Source of the DNA: Vicinamibacterales bacterium
Lineage (GTDB): Bacteria > Acidobacteriota > Vicinamibacteria > Vicinamibacterales > JAMQPK01
Assembly (NCBI GenBank): GCA_035281225.1
Contig: DATEEI010000117.1
Location: 62,720-126,719 of the forward strand
Length of the DNA stretch: 64,000 nt
Direction: 5' to 3'
The translations under genes and the position numbers were made by a program. Under the pieces are notes generated by a model. That model was given only the letters and a program-made list of their open reading frames with translations. It did not search any database and was not told the origin of the DNA. Shown here one piece after another: positions 6,260 through 46,963 of the stretch (position 1 is its first letter; each line of letters starts with the position of its first letter).

Positions 6260-8572
6260 TCAGTCTTTCTCTTTTTCCCCGCGGCCGAAGATCTTCCCCC
6301 AGAATCCGCGCTTCTTCTTCGGCTGCTCCTTGCCATCCACCGTGTCCGCAGCGACGACGAGCTCCGGTGTACCGGCGGAGACGGTCGACACCAGCGCGTC
6401 GCTCGCCTGTGCCTGATTCTGATTCGAGGCCGGAACTATTTCGCTGCCACCCGTGCCAACCGCGACGAGCTGTCCGGATGACGCGAAGAAGTAGTGCTCC
6501 TGGCAGACCTGCGAGGGTGCCGCACCGCGCACGAAGTAATCCGTGATGATGCGATCGCAGGCCTCGCCCGGCAACTGGCCCGAAAGCCGGCATACGTTCA
6601 CCGCCGTGAGGCCGGACGGCGCCTTGAACGTGTCTGGCTTATGGGCCGTCGTCGCCACTTTCATGAACCGCGCCCACATCGGCACGGCGAGCTCGCCGGC
6701 GAAACCGTGAGAAACAATCGTGCGCGGCTTGTCGAACCCGATCCAAACACCGGTGGCGAGATTCGGCGTGTAGCCGACGAACCACGCGTCCACGTAATCG
6801 TTGGTCGTACCGGTCTTGCCGGCGGCCGGAAGCGTGAACCCCTCCTGGCGCGCTCTGTAGGCCGTTCCGTAGTTGATGACATCGGACAACATGCTCGTCA
6901 TGAGGAACGCCGTCTGGGGCGCCAGCACCTGCGTGACAGACGGCTTCGCCTCGAAGAGCAGATTCCCCTCGGCATCTTCGACGCGGAGGATGAGCGTCGG
7001 CGGGCGAAGCTGGCCCCGATCGGCGAACGTCGAATACGCCGACGTCATCGCCATCAGCGTGACCTCGCCCGATCCGAGCGCCAGCGACGGCACGCTGGGC
7101 ACGCTTCCCATCCCCATGCGACGCGCCTGATCTACGGTCTTCGAAATTCCCACCTGCTCGAGCATCCGGACGGCCGCGCGATTGCTCGACGTGCGAAGAG
7201 CGGTGCGCACGGTCATGGCAGCGGAGATCGAGTGCTCGTCCTCCGGCATCCACGCGCCCTGCAGTGTCGCAACCGGCTCGTCGAGCCGAGTAACCAGCGA
7301 CGCGGGCGTGTAGCCATTCTCGAGCGCCGCCGCATACACAAAGGGCTTGAACGCGGAGCCCGGCTGGCGCAGCGCCTGCGTCGCGCGGTTGAACCGGCTC
7401 GCCTTGAAATCGCGGCCGCCGACCATCGCGCGCACTTCACCGGTCCGCGGATCCATGGCGACGAGTGCGGCTTCGAGGCGGTCTTCGGCAGGGCCGACCT
7501 GAAGGTCGGCACTACGTGTTGACTTCGGGTCAGCGCTATGTCGCGGCTTCTTCGACAGGCGCGCCGCACGCCGCGCCTCGATCTGCTCGAGCGATTTCGC
7601 GATCGTCGCTTCGGCCGCTCGCTGCATGTCCGGATCGATCGTGGTGTAGACGCGCAGGCCGCCTTCGGACAGGCGCTCCCAACCGAACTGTTTGACGAGC
7701 TGCTGGCGGACCTCTTCCTTGAAGTACTGACCGAGCGGCTCTTCGCGGCGAAGCACGTCGCGCAGCGTCACTTTCTCTTTCGTCGCACGCTCGAACGCGT
7801 CCTTCGTGATGATCTCCTGGTCGTTCATCGCCTTCAGGACGAGCGCGCGCCTCCCGACCGCGCGCGCCATGTTTACGGTCGGCGCGTTCACCGATGGCGC
7901 ATTCACGAGACCCGCCAACAGGGCAGACTCGGCCAGGTCGAGATCGGCCGCCGATTTTCCGAAGTATCCCCGTGCGGCCGCTTCGGCCCCGTACAATCCG
8001 TCTCCGAAGTACACCTTGTTCAGGTAGAGCTCGAGGATTTCCTCTTTGGAGTACATCCTCTCAATCCTGACAGCCAGCGCGATTTCCTGAAGCTTTCGCC
8101 AGTACTTTTTTTCACGGGTGAGAAAAGATTGCCTGGCCAGCTGCTGGGTGATGGTGCTGGCGCCCTGCGCCTTGCGGCCGCGCTGCAGGTCGGCCCAGGC
8201 GGCGCCGAAGATGCGAAACGGGTCGTAGCCCTTGTGATCTTCAAACCGCTGGTCTTCAAACGCGACAATCGCCTTTCGCAGGTGTGGCGACACCCGCGCC
8301 AACGGCACCTCGATGCGATATTCCTTGAAAATGGTGAAAACAGGCCTCTTGTTCACGTCGTAGAGCGTCGTGGCCTGAGGCATGTCGCCGAGAGTACGAA
8401 GCTCGTTGCGGTTGGGGAGTCCAGCAAACAACATCCCGATGGTCACAACGCCGACAACGACAACCGCTGCGATACCCCACAGGATCGGCCGCTTGTGCCT
8501 GTAAAACTGCTGTTTCAGACCCTGGAGAGCCTGGTCGAACGATCGGATGGGGACCATTGGTACGGTGCTCAT
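6260..8572 (-). CDS. mrcA: Penicillin-binding protein 1A (bifunctional transglycosylase/transpeptidase)
   Basis: GT51 motifs 'FEDQRFEDHKGYD' and 'GASTITQQLAR'; transpeptidase 'SAFKPFVYAAALE' (SxxK) and 'KTGTTND'; N-terminal TM anchor. Confidence 0.9.
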   Translation of the reverse strand: MSTVPMVPIRSFDQALQGLKQQFYRHKRPILWGIAAVVVVGVVTIGMLFAGLPNRNELRTLGDMPQATTLYDVNKRPVFTIFKEYRIEVPLARVSPHLRKAIVAFEDQRFEDHKGYDPFRIFGAAWADLQRGRKAQGASTITQQLARQSFLTREKKYWRKLQEIALAVRIERMYSKEEILELYLNKVYFGDGLYGAEAAARGYFGKSAADLDLAESALLAGLVNAPSVNAPTVNMARAVGRRALVLKAMNDQEIITKDAFERATKEKVTLRDVLRREEPLGQYFKEEVRQQLVKQFGWERLSEGGLRVYTTIDPDMQRAAEATIAKSLEQIEARRAARLSKKPRHSADPKSTRSADLQVGPAEDRLEAALVAMDPRTGEVRAMVGGRDFKASRFNRATQALRQPGSAFKPFVYAAALENGYTPASLVTRLDEPVATLQGAWMPEDEHSISAAMTVRTALRTSSNRAAVRMLEQVGISKTVDQARRMGMGSVPSVPSLALGSGEVTLMAMTSAYSTFADRGQLRPPTLILRVEDAEGNLLFEAKPSVTQVLAPQTAFLMTSMLSDVINYGTAYRARQEGFTLPAAGKTGTTNDYVDAWFVGYTPNLATGVWIGFDKPRTIVSHGFAGELAVPMWARFMKVATTAHKPDTFKAPSGLTAVNVCRLSGQLPGEACDRIITDYFVRGAAPSQVCQEHYFFASSGQLVAVGTGGSEIVPASNQNQAQASDALVSTVSAGTPELVVAADTVDGKEQPKKKRGFWGKIFGRGEKEKD

Positions 8573-38179: not shown

Positions 38180-38791
38180 TTAGAGCTTGCGCGCGACTCC
38201 CTCGAACATAAACGTCATCGGCTTAAGCCCCTTCATATGGCCGGTTTGAATCTGTTCAACGTCAAACCCGCTTTCGCGAATGAGCTGGTCAATCGGCCGG
38301 TTCAGATGGCATCCGCCGCCAATGCGTTTCCAGACGGGCGTGAGTCGATTCTGCCATTGCGCGACGTTGGCTTCTCTGGACAGACCATGCTCGGCAAACA
38401 GCAGTCGACCGTCGGCCTTCAGAACACGCCGCACTTCTGCAAGCGCGGTCGGCAGATCCGGTATCGAGCACATCGTCCAGGTCGTCACGACTGTGTCCAG
38501 GCTGTGGTCCGGTAGCGGAATGGACTCAGCGGAGCCCTCAATCAGCTCGATTGACGGCAAGCGATCGCCAGCGACCGAGCGGGCCATGGAGAGCAGCTTT
38601 GGCGAGGGATCCAAACCAACCACGTAAGTGCCCGACGGATACAGAGACAGATTGAGTCCCGAGCCGACGCCGATCTCCAAGACTCGGCCACGCGCGGCCC
38701 CGGTAACTCGGCGGCGATACGGCTCGAAGTGCGCCTGGCTCATTGACATCTGAATCAGATATGGCAGGATGCGCTCGCGGTAGAAGCTCAC
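38180..38791 (-). CDS. Class I SAM-dependent methyltransferase (Methyltransf_11-like)
   Basis: GTG at 38791 is preceded by AGGAGG (8 nt) and overlaps the upstream ORF stop by 1 nt. Motif I 'VLEIGVGSGLNL', 'LDTVVTTWTMCSI', 'LKADGRLLFAEHG'. Confidence 0.8.
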   Translation of the reverse strand: MSFYRERILPYLIQMSMSQAHFEPYRRRVTGAARGRVLEIGVGSGLNLSLYPSGTYVVGLDPSPKLLSMARSVAGDRLPSIELIEGSAESIPLPDHSLDTVVTTWTMCSIPDLPTALAEVRRVLKADGRLLFAEHGLSREANVAQWQNRLTPVWKRIGGGCHLNRPIDQLIRESGFDVEQIQTGHMKGLKPMTFMFEGVARKL

Positions 38792-39030
38792 TACGAAGAC
38801 CTCCTGCCGCGATCCGCGCCAGCTCGCGTCGTGCAAGCGGACGGCGGATCCTTCATCACCAAGTGAATACCAGCGAAGTACGCGAAGCAGGCACCTACTA
38901 CAGTGGTTCCAAAGCCCACCGACAGCTCGTTGAAGCCCGCGATCGGGCTGTTCGGAATAACGACACCGTAGCCAATTACGAGAGTTGGAACGACGAACGC
39001 GATCAAGGGGACGATGTATTTGAACTGCAT
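38791..39030 (-). CDS. Small (79 aa) membrane protein, hypothetical
   Basis: AGAGG 5 nt before the ATG. Two TM helices ('IVPLIAFVVPTLVIGYGVV', 'FGTTVVGACFAYFAGIHLV'). Tightly packed between tetR and the methyltransferase. Confidence 0.5.
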   Translation of the reverse strand: MQFKYIVPLIAFVVPTLVIGYGVVIPNSPIAGFNELSVGFGTTVVGACFAYFAGIHLVMKDPPSACTTRAGADRGRRSS

Positions 39031-39773
39031 TTACGCCTCTGTCTGGAACGCGTGGCGGCTGGGTTGGAGACGGCTTGATACGTCGCCGACACTAACGATC
39101 GTGTTATGAGATCAACAACCGTCTGACGGACGACGTCGTCGTCGAGCTCCTGCGGATACGGGTCCAGGAAACGATGTCGAGCAAAGAAGGTAACGCTCTC
39201 AACGATGAACCGCGCGGTTGTTGGCGGATCTGCCGAGTGAAAGGCACCGTCCTGCATGCGTATCGCGACATACCTGGTCAAGCGAGCAAACAGATCGCGA
39301 CGCACCTGCTCGAAGAACAATCCAAAGAGCTCAGGCACGTCACGCGCTGACCGCTCGAGAATGGTGGCGCCATCACGCGAACGCTCGGTCTGAAGAAACA
39401 GCTCCAACACGATGGCACGCAGCTCCTCTTTCGTATTGCCGGCCTTCCTGCGCTTCAAGGCTGCGTCTAGCGCCGGGAGCGGGAGCGTGTCGTGCACGCG
39501 CCGGCGAAGCCGCTCCACGATGTTCGCCATCGACGGCGTCCGAAGAGGAAGCTCGCGGCCGTCGAGGTTAAGGCCGGGACGTCCCCATTGCTCGACGAGC
39601 AACAGGAATAGTGCCTCCTTGGATTCCACATAGTTGTAGAGAGACCCGTGCGCCACGCCCATCTCACGAGCGATGTCCGTCATGCGGGCTTGCTTGAGCC
39701 CGGTGCGAGCAAACACGCGCGCGGCTGCCGCCAGCATGCGAGGGACGAACTCCGGCGCGCGAGGTCTGACCAC
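39003..39773 (-). CDS. TetR/AcrR-family transcriptional regulator
   Basis: GTG start. 'AAAARVFARTGLKQARMTDIAREMGVAHGSLYNYVESKEALF' is the TetR HTH. Confidence 0.85.
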   Translation of the reverse strand: MVRPRAPEFVPRMLAAAARVFARTGLKQARMTDIAREMGVAHGSLYNYVESKEALFLLLVEQWGRPGLNLDGRELPLRTPSMANIVERLRRRVHDTLPLPALDAALKRRKAGNTKEELRAIVLELFLQTERSRDGATILERSARDVPELFGLFFEQVRRDLFARLTRYVAIRMQDGAFHSADPPTTARFIVESVTFFARHRFLDPYPQELDDDVVRQTVVDLITRSLVSATYQAVSNPAATRSRQRRKCSSNTSSP

Positions 39774-39790
39774 GTCGACGCACTTTATAA

Positions 39791-39809
39791 TGACTGACTA
39801 TATCAGTCA
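39791..39809. promoter_or_regulatory. Inverted repeat TGACTGA-N5-TCAGTCA (candidate TetR operator)
   Basis: Perfect 7-bp arms inside the 80-bp AT-rich divergent intergenic region. It overlaps the minus-strand TTGACT / TAAAGT promoter elements. Confidence 0.5.
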
Positions 39810-39818
39810 ATAATTAAC

Positions 39819-39847
39819 TTGACACATATATTCAAGTATTCTATTTA
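39819..39847 (+). promoter_or_regulatory. sigma70-type promoter TTGACA-17-TATTTA for the arsR-rhodanese operon
   Basis: TTGACA 39819-39824, 17-bp spacer, TATTTA 39842-39847. The ATG at 39854 lies 7 nt after the -10, implying a leaderless start. Confidence 0.5.
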
Positions 39848-39853
39848 ATATGA

Positions 39854-40561
39854 ATGCACATGAGAGAGCACCGGCAGTTCAAGGACCGCCTCTATGGCCA
39901 GTTCGCGAGACTCGGCAAGGCCCTGGCGAGCCCGCAGCGCCTCGAACTGCTCGACCTACTCGCTCAAAGTGAACGCACAGTGGAGTCGCTGGCCGCGGAG
40001 ATCGGTTCGTCAACGGCCAACACCTCGCAGCATCTCCAGGTGCTGCGTCGAGCGAGCATGGTCGACACCCGTAAGGACGGGCTCTTCGTCCACTACCGGC
40101 TCGCCGATGCGAGTGTGCTGCAGCTCTGTGCGGCGCTTCGAACGGTCGCGGAACGGCAGTATGCGGACCTCGATCGGATCGTTCGCGATCACTTTGGCGA
40201 CCGGTCGGATCCTGAACCCGTGCAAATGGATGAACTGCTCAGGCGCGCGCGAAAAGGTGACGTCGTAATTCTCGATACACGACCGGCGCGCGAGTACGCG
40301 GCCGGCCACCTCGCCGGCGCCATCTCGATGCCGATTGATGAGCTCCACCGTCGACTCCGCAATCTCCCGAAGGCCAAGCCATACGTCGCGTATTGTCGCG
40401 GTCCCTACTGCGTCTATGCGGATCAGGCCGTGACGGCGTTACGACAGACCGGGCGCCGCGCGCAGCGACTCGCCGGAGGATTTCCCGAATGGAGGTCAGC
40501 AGGCCTGCCGATCGAAACAGGTGCGCCGACCGCGCGCGCCGAGAATGCGATGGCGACGTGA
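39854..40561 (+). CDS. ArsR/SmtB-family regulator fused to a C-terminal rhodanese domain
   Basis: wHTH 'LGKALASPQRLELLDLLAQSERTVESLAAEIGSSTANTSQHLQVLRRASMV', then rhodanese 'VVILDTRPAREYAAGHLAGAISMP...AYCRGPYCVYA'. No ELCVCDL-type metal site. Confidence 0.85.
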   Translation: MHMREHRQFKDRLYGQFARLGKALASPQRLELLDLLAQSERTVESLAAEIGSSTANTSQHLQVLRRASMVDTRKDGLFVHYRLADASVLQLCAALRTVAERQYADLDRIVRDHFGDRSDPEPVQMDELLRRARKGDVVILDTRPAREYAAGHLAGAISMPIDELHRRLRNLPKAKPYVAYCRGPYCVYADQAVTALRQTGRRAQRLAGGFPEWRSAGLPIETGAPTARAENAMAT

Positions 40562-41853
40562 GTACCAACGCTGCATCGGCGCCTTCGATCACACTCGGGC
40601 TGCGCGAAAACGCCGCGCAATTCACACTCCTGGTCGTCGTCAACGCCTTTGTCGGCGCGATGGTCGGCATCGAACGCAGTATTCTGCCGGCTATTGCAGA
40701 ACAGGAGTTTGCGCTCGCGGCACGCTCAGCGATTCTGTCATTCATCGTGGTGTTTGGCGTGTCGAAGGCGCTCACGAACTACGGCGCCGGTCGATGGTCC
40801 GATCGATTTGGCCGCAAGTCCGTTCTCGTGCTCGGCTGGCTGGTCGCAGCGCCGGTTCCATTCCTGCTGATGTGGGCTCCCAGCTGGAACTGGATCCTGT
40901 TCGCGAACGTGCTGCTTGGCGTCAGTCAGGGACTCACCTGGTCCACGACCGTCATCATGAAGATCGATCTCGTCGGCCCGAAAGAGCACGGATTGGCGAT
41001 GGGATTGAACGAGTGCGCCGGATACGTGGCCCTTTCCGGGAGCGCTCTCGCGACGGGTTGGGTTGCCGCACACTACGGCCTGCGGCCGCAGCCGTTCTAT
41101 CTGGGTGTAGGCTTCGTCGCCATCGGCCTCGCCCTCTCGGCGATGTTCGTGGGTGAAACACGTCACTTCGCGCACGAATCAGCACGACTCGCCTCGCGGC
41201 GTGACGGCCGCGCAGCCACGTCTCGCGACGTCTTCTGGCGGACCACCTTGCTCGACCCCAACCTTTCAAGCGTCAGCCAAGCCGGGCTTGTCAGCAATCT
41301 AAATGATGGAATGGCATGGGGACTTTTCCCATTGGTATTCGCCGCGGCCGGTATGGACCTCGCTCAGGTCGGACTGCTCGCGGCCATCTATCCCGCCACC
41401 TGGGGCTTTGGGCAATCTGTGACTGGAGCCCTGTCGGACCGCTTGGGCCGGAAGCCACTCATCGTCTGGGGCATGTGGATTCAGGCTGGCGGCATCGCGG
41501 TGATCACCATGGCGCATGCGTTCATGGGATTTGTCGTCGGGGCTTTGTTGATCGGCCTCGGAACCGCGATGGTCTATCCCGCGCTCCTCGCCGCCATCGG
41601 CGATGTTGCGCATCCTTCGTGGCGCGCCTCGGCGGTCGGGATCTATCGCTTGTGGCGGGACCTCGGGTATGCAATCGGGGCGCTGCTGGCGGGACTAGTT
41701 GCCGACTCCTTCGGGTTGTCGGCTGCGATGTGGTTCGTCGCGGCGCTCACCTTTGTGTCGGGAGTGCTGTCGGCAATTCGCATGCGGGAAACACTCTCAC
41801 CACCCACGGTGACGGGGCGAGCAGCTGATTGTGCTGCGGTAGCCGGTTTGTAA
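40558..41853 (+). CDS. MFS transporter
   Basis: GTG at 40558 overlaps the arsR stop (GTGA); alternative ATG at 40489. 12 TM; 'GRWSDRFGRKSVL' is the MFS loop 2-3 motif. Confidence 0.8.
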   Translation: MSTNAASAPSITLGLRENAAQFTLLVVVNAFVGAMVGIERSILPAIAEQEFALAARSAILSFIVVFGVSKALTNYGAGRWSDRFGRKSVLVLGWLVAAPVPFLLMWAPSWNWILFANVLLGVSQGLTWSTTVIMKIDLVGPKEHGLAMGLNECAGYVALSGSALATGWVAAHYGLRPQPFYLGVGFVAIGLALSAMFVGETRHFAHESARLASRRDGRAATSRDVFWRTTLLDPNLSSVSQAGLVSNLNDGMAWGLFPLVFAAAGMDLAQVGLLAAIYPATWGFGQSVTGALSDRLGRKPLIVWGMWIQAGGIAVITMAHAFMGFVVGALLIGLGTAMVYPALLAAIGDVAHPSWRASAVGIYRLWRDLGYAIGALLAGLVADSFGLSAAMWFVAALTFVSGVLSAIRMRETLSPPTVTGRAADCAAVAGL

Positions 41854-41868
41854 GGAAGGTCAGGAAAG

Positions 41869-42975
41869 ATGGCGAAGCAGATTGATGTCGAAACCCTGCG
41901 TCAGTGGCTTGACACCCAACACCCAGTCACCGTCGTCGATGTTCGAGCCGACGAAGACCGCGCCCGGTGGGCTATCCCCGGAAGTATGCACGTGAACGCC
42001 TACCAGTCCTTGCGATCGGGACAACCGGGAGCGCTCGCAGACGCCGTGCTCGCGACTGATCGACCAATCGTGACGGTGTGTGGCGCCGGTCGCATGAGTC
42101 AGACTGCGGCCGACTTCCTCACAGAACGCGGGTTTGATGTTCGTTCGCTGGCCGGGGGTATGAACGCCTGGACTCTCGCATGGAATACAGCGCGCGTCCC
42201 GATTGAATGCGACGGAATCACGATTGTTCAGGTGCGCCGAACCGGCAAGGGCTGCCTGTCGTACTTCGTCATATCAGACGGCGAGGCAATCGTGATCGAC
42301 GCTTCCTTGCCGGTGACTGTCTACGTCGACATCGCCAAGTCGCATGGCGCAACAATCCGTGCGGTGCTCGACACCCACATCCACGCAGATCATTTCTCTC
42401 GCGCGCGGCAGCTCGCCGAGCATGTTGGCGCACCGTTGCTGATGCCACAACAAGAACGCGTTGCGTTTCCATTCAAGCCACTGAAGGACGGCGACGAAAT
42501 CACGGTCCGACAAGCGACACTCATCGCCCGACGCACGCCCGGTCACACCCTTGAAAGCATGTCGTACGTGTTGCCAACGGTCGCCGTATTTACCGGCGAC
42601 ACGCTCTTCATAAAAGGCGTCGGTCGCCCGGACTTGCACGCAGACGCCGCCGGCGCAAGAGATCGTGCGCGCGCACTCTTCCACTCTTTGCAAGCGATCA
42701 GGGCACTTGGTCCAGAAGTCATCGTGCTACCTGCCCACACGAGTGAACCGATTGCATTCGATCGGCATCCTGTGATGACCCGGGTGTCCGACATCGACGC
42801 GTGGCTTGCCGGATGGCTGGCGTCCGAATCTTCTTTCGTAGACCGCGTCGTCTCACGACTGCCGGAGACGCCGCCCAACTTCGGACGCATCGTGGAACTG
42901 AACGAGCGCGGAGAGATGCCGGACCGTGACGTCACGGAACTTGAGGCCGGCGCCAACCGTTGCGCGGTGTCGTGA
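41869..42975 (+). CDS. Rhodanese - MBL-fold metallo-hydrolase fusion (persulfide-dioxygenase-like)
   Basis: N-terminal rhodanese 'VTVVDVRADEDRARWAIPGSMHV...VTVCGAGRMS'; MBL 'VLDTHIHADHFS', 'TPGHT'. Confidence 0.85.
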   Translation: MAKQIDVETLRQWLDTQHPVTVVDVRADEDRARWAIPGSMHVNAYQSLRSGQPGALADAVLATDRPIVTVCGAGRMSQTAADFLTERGFDVRSLAGGMNAWTLAWNTARVPIECDGITIVQVRRTGKGCLSYFVISDGEAIVIDASLPVTVYVDIAKSHGATIRAVLDTHIHADHFSRARQLAEHVGAPLLMPQQERVAFPFKPLKDGDEITVRQATLIARRTPGHTLESMSYVLPTVAVFTGDTLFIKGVGRPDLHADAAGARDRARALFHSLQAIRALGPEVIVLPAHTSEPIAFDRHPVMTRVSDIDAWLAGWLASESSFVDRVVSRLPETPPNFGRIVELNERGEMPDRDVTELEAGANRCAVS

Positions 42976-42992
42976 TGATGAAGGGGGGAGCG

Positions 42993-43826
42993 ATGACAGC
43001 AGGTACTGTGAATCCTAATCAGGCTCTGTGGGAAAAAGGTGACTTCACGCGCATTGCCGCGAGCATGCGCGAGAGCGGTCAAGCGGTGGTCGCCGGTCTC
43101 GGCCTCACGCCTGGGACGCGCGTTCTCGATCTTGGGTGCGGCGATGGCACAACGGCGCTGCCGATGGCCAAGCTCGGCGCTGATGTCACCGGCGTCGACA
43201 TTTCGCGCAATCTGGTCGACGCCGGCAACCGCCGTGCGAGCGAGGCCGGATTATCCAATTGCCGATTTCAGCACGGCGACGCGACCAATTTGCATAGCCT
43301 TCCTGATCGGGCATTCGATTTGGTCGTGAGCATGTTTGGGGCGATGTTCGCGCCGAAGCCGTTCGACGTCGCGAAAGAAATCGTGCGCGTAACCCGGCCC
43401 GGAGGCAGGATCGTGATGGGCAACTGGATTCCAGGCGATCCGACACTCGTCGCGCAGATCCTGAGAATCAGCTCCGCGTACTCTCCACCGCCTCCCGAGG
43501 GGTTCATCAGTCCGATGACATGGGGCATCGAGACCAATGTCATCGAACGGTTTGTCGCCGCCGGGGTTCCCAGCGAGGCAGTGTCCTTCGCCAAGGATGT
43601 TTACACGTTCCGCTTCCCAGGCTCGCCGTCTGCGTTTCTGGCTGAATTCCGGACCTGGTATGGGCCGACGATGAATGCCTTTGCCGCCGCCGAACAATCC
43701 GGCCGGGCCGCGGATCTGCAAACCGAGCTCGAAGCGCTCTTCAATCGTGAGAACCGGAGCGGATCTGCGGACACGACCGAGATCCCGGCGACGTTCCTTC
43801 GGGTGACGGTGATCGTTCCGGCATAG
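42993..43826 (+). CDS. Class I SAM-dependent methyltransferase
   Basis: GGGGGGAG precedes the ATG at 42993 (alternative ATG at 42975 overlapping the upstream stop). Motif I 'VLDLGCGDGTTAL', 'FDLVVSMFGAMF', 'TRPGGRIVM'. Confidence 0.8.
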   Translation: MTAGTVNPNQALWEKGDFTRIAASMRESGQAVVAGLGLTPGTRVLDLGCGDGTTALPMAKLGADVTGVDISRNLVDAGNRRASEAGLSNCRFQHGDATNLHSLPDRAFDLVVSMFGAMFAPKPFDVAKEIVRVTRPGGRIVMGNWIPGDPTLVAQILRISSAYSPPPPEGFISPMTWGIETNVIERFVAAGVPSEAVSFAKDVYTFRFPGSPSAFLAEFRTWYGPTMNAFAAAEQSGRAADLQTELEALFNRENRSGSADTTEIPATFLRVTVIVPA

Positions 43827-43833
43827 GCGCACG

Positions 43834-45600
43834 CTAAGGCACGCGGGACCTTATCGTCTCGCTCTCAGTCTGGCGCGTCGGATTCTCCAGATCGTACAAA
43901 TCGGCGCGAGTACTTCCGTAGTACGTGGCAACAGGCGTGAAACGTAGAGCGCCGATTCGTGACTGGCCTGAAAATCTCTGAACAAACTGTGCTCGCTCCA
44001 CATCCTCCATTAAGAGGAAGGGTTTGTACCCGTTTGATGTGAGAAACACCAACGAGCGGTCGAGCCACTCAGGAGGGAGCCAGTCCCAACGGAACGTCAA
44101 CCGGCCCGAGTAATACCGGATGCTGCCAGAGTGAAGGATCGAGAACACGATGGCATTCCGTGGGAGCTGCTCGTGCACATACTGACCAATCACCGCAAAC
44201 CGCCGATCGTGCGGCCGGACCGGCTTGAAGCCAGCCACATCCCACCGCCAAGCCAGAAACACGACGAAACATGCGACGAGAAGAAACTTCGAAGGAAATG
44301 AATTCAACCGCTCGCCGACGTACGAAACAGCTACGGCGCAAAGCAGTAAGCACAGCGCTATCGCCGGCAGCAGAAACCGCAAGAACGTCCAGTTATCAAA
44401 TGGAATGTAGGAGGCATAACAACCGTACAAGACCGCCGCAAACGCCACGAACAGGTTTGAGAATCTTCGTTGGTGGCCTTCACGTCGCCTCAGCAGGAAC
44501 CACCCAACAGCGGCGAGCACGATAAAAGGCGTTTCCATGTCGAGGAGCCACCTGGAGTACTGCGAGAGATTCGTCCAGAAATATTCGACACTGAACAAGA
44601 CCGACATGTCGCCGTATCCGGATGAAAGAGGCGAACCATAAAGCCTGGCGTTCACGACGGCGACACCGATGCACCCGGGAACAACCCCCGCAGCAAACAT
44701 GCACGCGTTCAACAAGCCGCGACGTCGTCTTTCCGCCGAGTAGAACAGCACAAAGATCCCAAGTAGAAGAGCTAGTGGGACAAGATTCGGCCTGGTGAGG
44801 AGCGCGGCCGATGTGGCGAAGCCTGCCGCAATAGTGGACGCAGGCGTGGTCCTCGAGGCAAGGAGTATCGCAAGGAGCCACCATGCCGTGACCGGCACAT
44901 CGCTCATCGGCTCTTTCAGGTGGAACAGGAATACCGGGCTCGTCAGCAACAAGGCGGCGGTCGCGAGGCCGCACGCCTCGCCACCAACGCGCCGTCCAAG
45001 CAGGAATGCCGTGACGATTGCCACACCGCCAAGCAGTGGCACGACAAAGAACGGACCGTCCCTACCGAAGAGCACGAGCATGCCTCCCATGAGCAGGGGG
45101 AGGCCAGGGGGATACGTTGGCACGATCGTTCCACGTTCCAGGCCGGGACGGTATCCAAGCGGCGAAAACGTCCACTCCGTTTCAGGCCAGGGCGCACGAA
45201 GAGAAAGGGGTTCGTGCTGAACGAGAGCGCCGGACACCCACAAGTGGGCTTGACTGACGTATCCATACACATCTGCGCCAACCACCTCGAACGCAGACAC
45301 GCGAAAAGCCATGACAACGGTGACTGCGGCGAGGGCAATCGCGACGGCCGTGGCGTGCTGCAGTATCTGAGACGCAATTCTTGTGAGCGTCTGTTGGCGC
45401 AATTCAGAGCGGTACAGCAAGAACGCACTGGCGACAACGGCGACGATCGCCGGGCGCCAGAGTGTCTGGGATGAGAGCCGAATGCCGTACGCCGATGTGT
45501 AGACGCCCGAGCCGAACACCGCGATGAACGCAAGGATGGCGCTTGCGACAATAGCGATCAGGGAAATTGAATCAATCAGCCTGGAACGAAGGGAAGGCAT
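43834..45600 (-). CDS. Polytopic GT-C-type (GT39/ArnT-like) membrane glycosyltransferase candidate
   Basis: 588 aa, more than 12 TM plus a soluble C-terminal domain. The overall architecture resembles PMT/ArnT-like enzymes, but I saw no diagnostic motif. Confidence 0.45.
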   Translation of the reverse strand: MPSLRSRLIDSISLIAIVASAILAFIAVFGSGVYTSAYGIRLSSQTLWRPAIVAVVASAFLLYRSELRQQTLTRIASQILQHATAVAIALAAVTVVMAFRVSAFEVVGADVYGYVSQAHLWVSGALVQHEPLSLRAPWPETEWTFSPLGYRPGLERGTIVPTYPPGLPLLMGGMLVLFGRDGPFFVVPLLGGVAIVTAFLLGRRVGGEACGLATAALLLTSPVFLFHLKEPMSDVPVTAWWLLAILLASRTTPASTIAAGFATSAALLTRPNLVPLALLLGIFVLFYSAERRRRGLLNACMFAAGVVPGCIGVAVVNARLYGSPLSSGYGDMSVLFSVEYFWTNLSQYSRWLLDMETPFIVLAAVGWFLLRRREGHQRRFSNLFVAFAAVLYGCYASYIPFDNWTFLRFLLPAIALCLLLCAVAVSYVGERLNSFPSKFLLVACFVVFLAWRWDVAGFKPVRPHDRRFAVIGQYVHEQLPRNAIVFSILHSGSIRYYSGRLTFRWDWLPPEWLDRSLVFLTSNGYKPFLLMEDVERAQFVQRFSGQSRIGALRFTPVATYYGSTRADLYDLENPTRQTESETIRSRVP

Positions 45601-45681: not shown

Positions 45682-46185
45682 ATGACACTCTCGCAATTAT
45701 TTCTTGAAGAGCTCGATCGCGAAAGTCCACGCACACGCCGCGCGCTCGCGCAAGTACCGCTTGGCCGTGATGACTGGACACCGCATCCGAAGTCGATGCC
45801 ACTGGGGCGTCTGGCAGGGTTGGTCGCCGCGATGCCGTCGTGGGTAACGCTCATCATCGGACAGGACGAGCTGGATCTCACACCGCCCGGCGCCGGCCAG
45901 TCCAAACAACCCACCATCGACACGCTGGTGGAGATTCACGACGGGCACGTGACGAAGGCACGCGAGTCGCTCTCCAAGACCACCGATGACTTCCTCATGA
46001 CGACGAGCTGGCGCCTGCGTGCGGGTGGAAAAGTCGTAATGGAGGCGCCGAGACATGTCGTCTTACGCGACACGCTCAACCATCTGGCCCACCATCGGGG
46101 ACAGCTCACGGTGTATCTGCGGCTCAACGATCGCACGGTGCCCGCCATCTATGGGCCGTCTGCCGACGACCAGCAATTTGCGTAG
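45682..46185 (+). CDS. DinB-family protein
   Basis: 167 aa; 'LRDTLNHLAHHRGQLTVYLRL' is the characteristic DinB His-rich helix. Confidence 0.85.
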   Translation: MTLSQLFLEELDRESPRTRRALAQVPLGRDDWTPHPKSMPLGRLAGLVAAMPSWVTLIIGQDELDLTPPGAGQSKQPTIDTLVEIHDGHVTKARESLSKTTDDFLMTTSWRLRAGGKVVMEAPRHVVLRDTLNHLAHHRGQLTVYLRLNDRTVPAIYGPSADDQQFA

Positions 46186-46231: not shown

Positions 46232-46963
46232 ATGGCTATGACCAGGCCTCATGCGAGCGCGCCGAGATTTCGTCGTCAATGGCGAGGGTACGACCGTACA
46301 GAGGTCGATGCATTCCTCGCAGCGACGGCTGCCGATCGAGAGCGGCTTCGGGACAACCTGAAACGGATTGAAGACCTGCTCGCCACCTGCGAGCGGCCCG
46401 CCACGAAGACGACCCATTCGTACTCAGAAAGCTCGGAGCCTAATTTTCTATCGGAGCCGTCGAGCCCAATCCGGACTGATAGACGGCGCCGCACGCTGTT
46501 GACTCTGGCGTTTGCCGCCGCGTGCGTCTCCGTTGTCGTCGCGCTGAATTCCCGGGTGGACTCTGATACGCCAAGCGCTGTTGAGCGCGTGAACACCCCG
46601 ACGGCCACCGCACCCGCGTCCAGGTCACGTCTCGCACAGACATTGCCGGCGAAGACACAGGCGTCGCCACTGCAAACCGCTGCACCACACGCGGCCGACC
46701 TCACCATGACCCTCGCGGCTCAACGGGCGTGCTGGATCAGTACGCTGGTCGACGGTGCACAGCCCATGGAGCGTCTCCTCAAGCCGGGTGAATCGTTGAT
46801 GCTGCACGCTCGCGAGGAAGTCCTCCTCAAGATTGGCGACGCTGGCGCGGTGTCGCTGGTCATCAACAACCGCTCTGCGAAGCCGCTCGGCCGCGATGGC
46901 GAGGTGGTCACCAAGCGAATCAAGCGCACGAACTATTCAAGCTTTTTGAACGATTCGTTCTAA
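46232..46963 (+). CDS. DivIVA-N-like / TM / DUF4115 (RodZ C-terminal domain) protein
   Basis: 'FRRQWRGYDRTEVDAFLAA' (DivIVA-domain start), TM 'LLTLAFAAACVSVVVAL', C-terminal 'CWISTLVDGAQPMERLLKPGESL...IGDAGAVSLVINN' DUF4115-like. Confidence 0.65.
   Translation: MAMTRPHASAPRFRRQWRGYDRTEVDAFLAATAADRERLRDNLKRIEDLLATCERPATKTTHSYSESSEPNFLSEPSSPIRTDRRRRTLLTLAFAAACVSVVVALNSRVDSDTPSAVERVNTPTATAPASRSRLAQTLPAKTQASPLQTAAPHAADLTMTLAAQRACWISTLVDGAQPMERLLKPGESLMLHAREEVLLKIGDAGAVSLVINNRSAKPLGRDGEVVTKRIKRTNYSSFLNDSF

Follow-up and report, generated by a model that had tools for sequence, protein, structure and literature searches.

A divergent seven-gene locus of a Vicinamibacterales genome with an ArsR-rhodanese, MFS and persulfide dioxygenase-like cassette: a candidate reactive-sulfur stress module

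Among the described bacterial systems that handle reactive sulfur, the closest to the locus analysed here are the operons of the BigR/SqrR/PigS/YgaV type (bigR-blh of Xylella and Agrobacterium, ygaV-ygaP of E. coli), in which an ArsR repressor acting on its own promoter controls a metallo-beta-lactamase (MBL) protein of the persulfide dioxygenase (PDO) type, a rhodanese and a membrane exporter. The second relevant group is that of the PDOs themselves: Staphylococcus aureus CstB and other type III PDO-rhodanese proteins, arranged as PDO, pseudo-rhodanese and C-terminal rhodanese and controlled in the cst operon by CstR of the CsoR family, and the type I and II PDOs such as ETHE1, together with the PDO-rhodanese fusion BpPRF of Burkholderia. 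In heterotrophs, the standard route of sulfide oxidation consists of a sulfide:quinone oxidoreductase (SQR), a PDO and a rhodanese (PMC9163753). Here we describe a locus at positions 38,180 to 43,826 of a 64,000-nucleotide stretch (the window) of contig DATEEI010000117.1, from a Vicinamibacterales (Acidobacteriota) metagenome-assembled genome (MAG), in which an ArsR-rhodanese fusion, a major facilitator superfamily (MFS) transporter and a rhodanese-MBL protein are encoded together with a TetR regulator, a small membrane protein and two methyltransferases, MT1 and MT2. We read it as a module that counters stress from reactive sulfur (sulfide, persulfide, polysulfide), with a conserved three-gene cassette at its core, and we put the chance that this is right at slightly better than even, about 0.55. 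Judged from sequence, this reading appears to fit better than one based on arsenic, because it explains the PDO-type partner, the SQR-like, DsrE and cysteine desulfurase companions found in relatives, the rhodanese domains and the thiol-methyltransferase homology. The cassette is common in nature but uncharacterised, and is a variant of the known reactive-sulfur regulatory and detoxification systems.

An ORF check of the window returned seven packed ORFs in two divergent operons, with the layout, packing and overlaps that an earlier note on this DNA had described:

38180-38836, minus strand: ORF of MT1, open to 38836; 38180-38791 from GTG (the NCBI start, 203 aa)
38791-39030, minus strand: 79-aa ORF with two hydrophobic stretches or helices, between tetR and MT1
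39003-39773, minus strand: TetR gene, first gene of the minus operon
39854-40561, plus strand: ArsR-rhodanese gene, HTH_5/HTH_20 and Rhodanese
40558-41853, plus strand: MFS gene, GTG start at 40558, MFS_1
41869-42975, plus strand: rhodanese-MBL gene, 368 aa, Rhodanese and Lactamase_B
42960, 42975 or 42993 to 43826, plus strand: MT2, Methyltransf_11/25

From its GTG at 38791, MT1 shares 1 nt with the stop of the small ORF, which in turn overlaps the 3' end of tetR by 28 nt. On the plus strand, the ArsR-rhodanese stop and the MFS start are joined in a GTGA overlap at 40558, a 15-nt gap containing GGAAGG lies between the MFS end and the rhodanese-MBL start, and MT2 may begin at ATG 42975 (TGATG overlap) or at ATG 42993, 17 nt on, after GGGGGGA, a G-rich ribosome-binding site. 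The domain assignments of the note are each backed by Pfam and NCBIfam (those listed above, with Methyltransf_11/25 called twice and TetR_N for the TetR gene), and the CRGPYC, CGAGRMS and THIHADH motifs on which it had relied are readable directly in the translations.

The regulator joins an ArsR/SmtB winged helix-turn-helix (wHTH) domain (PF01022, HTH_5, E 3.6e-10; NF033788, 75.6 bits, cut-off 55) to a rhodanese domain at its C-terminus (PF00581, E 1e-16) with the active-site loop C181-R-G-P-Y-C186 (YCRGPYC). Like the BigR/SqrR-type proteins, it lacks a metal site and probably responds to sulfane sulfur acting on a Cys pair. The translation holds neither the CVC/ELCVCDL site of alpha3 nor a His/Asp/Glu metal site in alpha5, and C92, the only wHTH Cys, is variable among 43 sequences (44-100% identity), which agrees with the note's statement that an ELCVCDL-type site is lacking. 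The BigR/SqrR-type sensors use a Cys pair of alpha2 and alpha5 that forms a polysulfide bridge (PMC10054925), whereas no such pair is present in the window regulator, as judged by conservation across the same 43 sequences, and the NF040642 BigR model gives it 52.2 bits against a cut-off of 155. Its wHTH lies nearer to the Mb0332/Rv0081 group, the best PDB match being M. bovis Mb0332 (2kko/3gw2, E 6e-17); Mb0332 and Rv0081 both fall in ArsR groups described as largely uncharacterised (PMC10054925). C181 and C186 are the sole invariant cysteines of the regulator, which is consistent with the earlier proposal, predicted from sequence, that the signal is sensed through the fused rhodanese. The rhodanese of ygaVP is encoded by a gene of its own, whereas here the candidate sensing cysteines sit in the fused rhodanese loop; the exporter also differs, being TauE/SafE in the BigR/SqrR-type operons and MFS in the window. 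The C-x-G-P-x-C loop is shared with the structural-genomics rhodanese BH2092 (3nhv, CWGPAC). The fused architecture is not rare, with at least 7,997 homologues of the regulator, and had long been noted (cited in PMC3817168); in the literature searched we found no functional studies of ArsR-rhodanese fusions as sensors. The chromate-responsive ChrB likewise has a rhodanese-like C-terminal sensing part (PMC3817168), but its DNA-binding domain and loop are different and it senses an oxyanion, and the window regulator matches only the rhodanese ChrE, weakly. The AlphaFold2 (AF2) model of the regulator (pLDDT 63) was too poor for use.

The enzyme consists of an N-terminal rhodanese domain (Cys71; PF00581, E 3e-14) and an MBL domain, and its best matches in sequence and predicted structure are PDOs. 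The phmmer matches in the PDB are 3tp9 (8e-30), BpPRF (1e-19), the S. aureus CstB-like 3r2u (2e-18) and ETHE1 (7e-11), and the top 22 PDB matches of its AF2 model (pLDDT 88.6, pTM 0.86) in Foldseek are all PDOs, with glyoxalase II ranking below. H170, H226, D244 and R253, which do not vary within the family, align with ETHE1 H79, H135, D154 and R163, so that the MBL fold, the Fe ligands and the Arg of GRxD are shared with ETHE1, the other type I-II PDOs and BpPRF (TM-score of 0.5-0.57 with ETHE1 and BpPRF, normalised to the 368-aa query). The likeness goes further in the CstB-type proteins 3r2u and 3tp9, its best matches, and takes in the Fe His2Asp triad, the Arg, RPDL, a helical extension, a covalently attached catalytic rhodanese and the lack of glutathione (GSH)-site residues. 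Aligned with solved PDOs, the window enzyme has none of the features of the site for GSH or glutathione persulfide (GSSH), namely the S-T-[FY]-T-Y Thr network, AHDY and PAN..CG of the ETHE1-type enzymes: Cys129 replaces the Thr of the Thr-Asp-water network, AHTSEP replaces AHDY, and LNERG stands at the PAN..CG position. The Cys201-Gly202 loop of CstB, described as a built-in substrate that is S-sulfonated and then passed to the rhodanese (preprint 10.64898/2026.02.20.707092), is absent as well, the loop of the window enzyme being 3 residues shorter and free of Cys. As both the GSH residues and the CstB loop are missing, the enzyme is PDO-like and not a proven PDO; sequence and model suggest a distinct PDO-like subtype whose dioxygenase activity and persulfide substrate are putative. 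The earlier view of the MBL protein as a persulfide oxidiser therefore survives in part. The note had set beforehand that a domain lacking the PDO-specific substrate-binding residues would speak against it, and the outcome is divided: the best sequence and structure matches are PDOs, and the Fe triad and Arg are present, but the GSH-site residues and the CstB loop are not. The reversed domain order to which it drew attention is real in that the single rhodanese is N-terminal, opposite to BpPRF and with no pseudo-rhodanese as in CstB, but it is not singular, as the 368-aa rhodanese-MBL family has at least 7,825 matches.

Three cysteines, Cys71, Cys129 and Cys365, are kept without exception in 120 family members (63-100% identity). 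Cys129, within VRRTGKGCLSY, aligns with ETHE1 Thr35 and CstB Gln13 next to the metal site, and Cys365 lies in an invariant, family-specific C-terminal tail, LEAGANRCA (pLDDT of the tail ~67). A C-terminal Cys is essential in an Acidithiobacillus PDO (PMC6060420). It can be hypothesized that Cys129 or the Cys365 tail may act in the role of CstB Cys201.

The neighbourhood of the regulator was followed in a genome scan that returned 47 loci (numbered here with the prefix L), the window proteins being compared by tblastn and strand-specific ORF maps, and partner counts were taken from the 39 loci with a near-full-length regulator, which come from at least six phyla and include members of Acidobacteriota, Actinomycetota, Chloroflexota, Myxococcota and Alphaproteobacteria. 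An MFS gene is present within 4 kb of the regulator in 27/39 loci, a PDO-like MBL gene in 23/39 and both in 20/39; where at least 4 kb was available on both flanks (n=18), the numbers are 14, 13 and 11. The MFS protein is the most constant partner (homologues of 51-86% identity). The cassette genes all point the same way in Acidobacteriota but are divergent in many Actinomycetota, and this variation of order and strand by phylum argues for selection on the linkage and not for recent common descent. Across these loci the regulator thus keeps the company typical of BigR/SqrR-type sensors, i.e. a sulfurtransferase, PDO or SQR, and transporters. The co-occurrence of ArsR-rhodanese and MBL genes that the note had asked about is borne out by the 23/39 count, and a neighbourhood not conserved in relatives, which it had named as an outcome that would refute the module, was not what we found, the core trio recurring across phyla.

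The MBL partner is always of the PDO type and comes in three forms: the 368-aa N-rhodanese plus MBL protein (window, L001, L027, L048-L057), a CstB-like MBL-RHD-Rhod protein of ~448 aa (3tp9, E 5e-65) that retains the CstB loop Cys, and a plain MBL protein of ~245 aa with a Cys-Gly loop. Among the last, those of L005 (6507-7244) and L008 carry both a Cys in the Thr35/Gln13 column and a CstB-like G-S-x-C-G loop, and from their sequences look intermediate between the two PDO subtypes. The window layout itself recurs in two metagenome contigs, L055 with six of the seven genes (80-87% identity) and L056 with all seven (61-81% identity) plus one extra methyltransferase; a layout found again in independent contigs, around a core found across phyla, is more than chance. 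The strongest argument for sulfur comes from one relative represented by three near-identical contigs (L048-L050), where the rhodanese-MBL protein is 64% identical to that of the window and the order is TetR-like, ArsR-rhodanese, MFS, DsrE, SQR-like, rhodanese-MBL, nucleoside-phosphorylase-family and NifS/IscS-like cysteine desulfurase. The SQR-like flavoprotein (414 aa) has human SQR 8dhk as its best PDB match (E 5e-30) and type III SQR as its best NCBIfam match, so the PDO-type enzyme stands beside an SQR-like gene, as in the known sqr-pdo operons; DsrE is also present in L001, the closest genome relative. The DsrE, SQR-like and desulfurase genes point to the handling of sulfide or persulfide rather than arsenic. 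The PNP_UDP_1 neighbour in L048-L050 was considered as an S-adenosylhomocysteine nucleosidase serving the methyltransferases and rejected, as it gave only weak uridine or purine phosphorylase matches.

The 80-bp back-to-back region between tetR and the ArsR-rhodanese gene contains two palindromes, each over one promoter, and each regulator therefore seemingly guards its own promoter:

39791-39809: palindrome TGACTGACT-A-TATCAGTCA, probable TetR operator
39810-39782, minus strand: promoter TTGACT-17-TAAAGT, predicted by promoter scan
39819-39849, plus strand: putative plus-operon promoter, TTGACA 39819-39824, 17 nt, TATTTA 39842-39847, read from the sequence
39830-39849: ATTCAAGTATTCTATTTAAT (ATTCAA-N8-TTGAAT with one mismatch), probable ArsR-rhodanese operator

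ATTCAA-N8-TTGAAT, allowing up to 2 mismatches, lies within 160 bp 5' of the regulator gene in 41/46 loci, at a density of 6.5 per kb upstream of the regulator against 0.017 per kb elsewhere in the loci (~390-fold), and two copies ~44 bp apart are present where the cassette is divergent. The site at 39830-39849 is the sole copy in the window and is not significant alone (0.61 expected), so that its support comes from the position conserved across loci and not from a stand-alone statistic: it precedes the start codon by 23-31 nt in 14/15 operator-bearing loci at 62% identity or more, mostly Acidobacteriota. Since it overlaps the -35/-10 spacer and the -10, it would fit autorepression by the ArsR-rhodanese protein. 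The plus promoter is not listed by the consensus scan, position 6 of its -10 being A, and a TTGAC-type -35 occurs at the same spacing from the operator in most Acidobacteriota relatives. With ATG 39854 just 7 nt past the -10, the mRNA is probably leaderless or near-leaderless. The 39791-39809 palindrome overlaps the predicted minus-strand promoter and occurs once in the window (0.01 expected by chance). A near-perfect TGACTGACT-N-AGTCAGTCA is present only in loci with a divergent TetR gene (L001, L055, L056), with a degenerate version in L005, and the palindrome can be written in general form as TGACTGACT-N-(AG/TA)TCAGTCA.

The product of tetR belongs to the TetR family (PF00440, TetR_N, 43 bits against a cut-off of 24, E 4e-11), and homologues stand beside the ArsR-rhodanese gene in L001 (81%), L055 (82%), L056 (80%), L005 (39%) and L048-L050 (54%). 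The 79-aa ORF that follows it gave no Pfam or NCBIfam match, and has homologues at the same position in L001 (79%), L055 (81%), L056 (81%) and the Myxococcales MAG L005 (51%), the counterparts in L055 and L056 being called as 65-aa genes. The MFS protein has 12 transmembrane helices and falls within the superfamily (PF07690, MFS_1, 152.7 bits, E 1.6e-44), and none of the NCBIfam subfamily models reached its cut-off. An upstream TTG or ATG would extend its frame back into the regulator gene (window 40393-41853), and in L051 (5087-6901) the gene caller gives a 604-aa "Rhodanese + MFS" protein, which is probably an annotation artefact and not a real fusion.

MT1 (Methyltransf_11, E 2e-20) has a class I S-adenosylmethionine fold with GxGxG and is homologous to the human thiol S-methyltransferase TMT1A, with 32% identity over 151 aa in BLASTP (E 3e-23; the TMT1A sequence was confirmed exact), a better match than that to any PDB methyltransferase (best 54 bits). 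The likeness to the TMT1/METTL7 group runs through the C-terminal W..L.P.W...GC.L.R region, and what MT1 lacks is the N-terminal membrane anchor of TMT1A. An extended similarity with TMT1A/B (METTL7A/B) has been reported for MddH and MddM1, bacterial methyltransferases that turn H2S and methanethiol into dimethylsulfide; MddM1 homologues from Acidobacteriota are reported to be active, and the Mycolicibacterium gene to be induced by H2S (PMC12904073). MT1 (~203 aa) is in the size class of MddM1 (204-221 aa; PMC12904073), which is described as UbiG-family, whereas JGI places the MT1 family under COG UbiE. Orthologues of MT1 occupy the same position in L001, L055 and L056 (74-82% identity). On these grounds MT1 is a candidate thiol S-methyltransferase, and the note's suggestion that the methyltransferases act on thiols is thus supported for MT1, by its homology. 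MT2 (Methyltransf_11/25, E 1e-22) has a C-terminal extension of ~110 aa, reached no NCBIfam cut-off and is without a close characterised relative; its orthologue in L056 (77% identity) is again downstream of the rhodanese-MBL gene. L053 (4878-8107) and L054 have a rhodanese-MBL gene, its product 76% identical to the window enzyme, but no regulator or MFS gene with it; it follows genes for two other class I methyltransferases and for a short Pyr_redox_2 protein of 220 aa, and methyltransferases are thus again linked to rhodanese-MBL.

The reactive-sulfur reading can be put as a mechanism. A dimeric ArsR-rhodanese protein would bind ATTCAA-N8-TTGAAT over the -35/-10 and repress the plus operon, i.e. 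its own gene, MFS, rhodanese-PDO and MT2. When sulfane sulfur rises, C181 would take up a persulfide in the manner of a rhodanese, and C186, five residues on, would attack it to form an intraloop di- or trisulfide; the change in the loop would reach the wHTH through the long linker helix and free the DNA of the repressor. The rhodanese-PDO would then gather sulfane sulfur on Cys71 and, at the Fe site, convert it by oxidation into sulfite or thiosulfate, with Cys129 or the flexible C-terminal Cys365 perhaps carrying the persulfide as Cys201 does in CstB. The MFS protein might export the oxyanion product or another sulfur species, a step that is pure inference. The TetR-controlled operon, with its small membrane protein and TMT1-like MT1, would together with MT2 provide S-methylation of H2S, methanethiol and other thiols to volatile, non-toxic products. 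As for SQR and DsrE, their genes in the fuller operon would have been lost from the window or were never part of it.

Several observations weigh against this reading. Besides the two missing features of the enzyme, no SQR, DsrE, nucleoside phosphorylase or cysteine desulfurase gene was found in the 64-kb window by tblastn with the L048 proteins. We know of no MFS exporter of sulfite or thiosulfate, and the MFS protein is without a characterised relative, its best weak matches being multidrug exporters. MT1 is likened to MddM1 and MddH by description, and would be at most a candidate MddM1: the accessions MDE3069982.1 and MCZ6599416.1 of the MddM1 paper are not among the MT1 cluster members listed, and the family threshold used there is E <= 1e-30 (PMC12904073). 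Nor does the regulator always keep the same company. In Porticoccaceae MAGs (L015:6044-7937, also L017, L019 and L042) an ArsR-rhodanese gene with a perfect ATTCAATTGATTAATTGAAT operator has as its divergent neighbours, in place of the MFS and PDO genes, a gene of the fatty-acid-hydroxylase family and one for a membrane protein that fuses DedA(VTT) to a rhodanese, and the regulator family is therefore not tied to one regulon. Two further points, the TehB score of MT2 and the ArsM-like companions in relatives, count at the same time in favour of the first alternative.

That alternative, which we regard as unlikely, is that the locus detoxifies a chalcogen or metalloid (Se, Te, As), the Cys pair of the rhodanese loop sensing selenide, selenopersulfide, tellurite or an arsenical, the methyltransferases volatilising the element and the MFS protein exporting methylated or thiolated species. 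MT2 passes the Pfam cut-off of TehB, the tellurite/selenite methyltransferase (29.7 against 20.4 bits), and the regulator domains have sub-threshold NCBIfam matches to TsoR and to the rhodanese/DsbD selenoprotein TsoB. In L051, L055 and L056 the cassette is flanked by metal-resistance genes (OEP/CzcB/RND efflux, multicopper oxidase, YHS/HMA copper P-type ATPase), and up to four methyltransferases surround it in L055 and L056. An ArsM-like methyltransferase accompanies the cassette in seven relative loci:

L002, 8745-9365: ArsM-like gene
L021, 299-874: ArsM-like gene
L022, 3301-3954: ArsM-like gene
L024, 4032-4640: ArsM-like gene
L032, 9438-10082: ArsM-like gene
L035, 9447-10076: ArsM-like gene
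L056, 10056-10670: ArsM-like gene

Each of these genes stops at an in-frame TGA that coincides exactly with the codon for ArsM's third conserved Cys (W-x-G-C), past which the frame runs on for ~60-85 codons with a conserved IAGALLEAE..., with a hairpin 11-13 nt downstream, and their best NCBIfam matches are the "ArsM_..._UU" selenoprotein models. Judged from these features, the proteins are probably selenocysteine-containing, in Acidobacteriota, Actinomycetota and Chloroflexota. Against arsenic in particular, the ArsM-like proteins miss two of the three As(III)-binding cysteines and no such selenoprotein-type gene is present in the window, MT1 and MT2 reach 44 and 53 bits against an NCBIfam ArsM cut-off of 263, and no ArsB/Acr3, ArsC, ArsH or ArsI gene was found among the locus genes and the 13 flanking ORFs scanned. 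The wHTH of the regulator lacks As(III)-binding cysteines, and the note's argument from this absence against an ars role holds, the more so with the ars genes absent; an arsenic operon was accordingly rejected as the leading interpretation. More generally, the constant enzyme partner is a PDO-type MBL protein, tied in L048-L050 to SQR-like, DsrE and cysteine desulfurase genes.

Sulfur acquisition, to which we give a similarly small chance, would make the locus a counterpart of BpPRF, which has been assigned to sulfur assimilation (summarised in PMC9163753): the rhodanese would move sulfane sulfur from thiosulfate or an organic persulfide to a thiol, the PDO would free sulfite for assimilation, the MFS protein would import a sulfur source and the regulator would report sulfur status. 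BpPRF is a significant match in both sequence and structure, the window has no SQR and hence no dedicated sulfide-oxidising step, and a sulfur-mobilising cysteine desulfurase belongs to the L048-L050 operon. That same fuller operon also holds the SQR-like gene and DsrE, no cys or ssu assimilation genes were found among the locus genes and the scanned flanking ORFs, and the methyltransferases, if thiol-acting, would remove rather than conserve reduced sulfur. A repressor freed by sulfane sulfur suits the logic of detoxification better than that of scavenging. Very improbable, finally, is the absence of any common function, with TetR/ArsR and MFS as ordinary drug or xenobiotic efflux and the MBL and methyltransferase genes as chance neighbours: TetR-MFS linkage is common in efflux units, multidrug exporters are the nearest matches of the transporter and the enzyme substrates are all unassigned, but the MFS gene is translationally coupled to the ArsR-rhodanese gene and not to tetR, at least five phyla share the trio even though order and strand are rearranged, and the seven-gene layout recurs in L055 and L056.

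Returning to the reactive-sulfur reading, a bolder and tentative form of it, against which we think the odds stand, is that the ArsR-rhodanese proteins are a new and very widespread class of reactive-sulfur sensor, with a C181/C186 switch, the ATTCAA-N8-TTGAAT operator and an MFS plus PDO regulon, paired in Acidobacteriota with a third PDO architecture in which an N-terminal rhodanese, the active-site Cys129 and a swinging Cys365 replace the Cys201 loop of CstB. To our knowledge the bacterial persulfide sensors described so far (CstR, SqrR/BigR, FisR) all sense through cysteines of the regulator core, and sensing through the borrowed active site of a sulfurtransferase would, if true, depart from that design. 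Members of this very large family come mostly from soil metagenomes (Acidobacteriota, Actinomycetota including mycobacteria, Chloroflexota, Myxococcota and Proteobacteria), and with a conserved operator, a defined regulon and a two-cysteine switch the proposal is now testable. The highly conserved MFS protein may be the missing exporter for the products of sulfide oxidation, the enzyme represents a PDO subtype with neither glutathione site nor CstB loop, and the TMT1-like methyltransferase ties sulfide stress to dimethylsulfide, which abundant soil bacteria may form in this way. Should none of the readings hold, the locus would remain of use as an instance of a stress cassette that is conserved yet unannotated.

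The mycobacterial members deserve separate mention. Rv0324 of M. tuberculosis (Mb0332 of M. bovis, 2kko/3gw2), which we take to carry a C-terminal rhodanese domain, is 40-52% identical to the N-terminal domains of the family, and its orthology to the window protein is not established. It is known only from network studies, through hypoxia modules and bedaquiline tolerance (PMC4916473), and in the literature searched we found no ligand or sulfur link for it, nor a function for its rhodanese. If Rv0324 is a member of the family, the regulon through which it is linked to hypoxia and bedaquiline tolerance would be a response to sulfane sulfur. A cassette of ArsR-rhodanese, CstB-like and MFS genes is present in a Mycobacterium MAG (L038); a DUF4395 protein and an NnrU-like membrane protein are encoded between the regulator gene and the CstB-like and MFS genes (6587-7941), and an MT1-like methyltransferase gene (35-36% identity) lies ~1.6 kb downstream of the regulator gene. 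DUF4395 is found near the cassette in L048 as well.

No ars, sox, sqr, metal-efflux or other sulfur genes were seen in the window flanks (the 13 flanking ORFs), and an Rfam scan of 37-47 kb gave no match above chance. The flanks encode an S41-like peptidase, a serine beta-lactamase-like protein, a PMT_2-type glycosyltransferase, DinB, a RodZ_C protein, a TonB receptor and histidine kinases, and as these are functionally unrelated to the locus, the seven genes form a self-contained island. The nearest downstream genes, all seemingly unrelated to it, are:

43834-45600, minus strand: 588-aa PMT_2 / LA_3751-family putative glycosyltransferase
45682-46185, plus strand: DinB-family protein
46232-46963, plus strand: protein with DivIVA-like and RodZ_C domains

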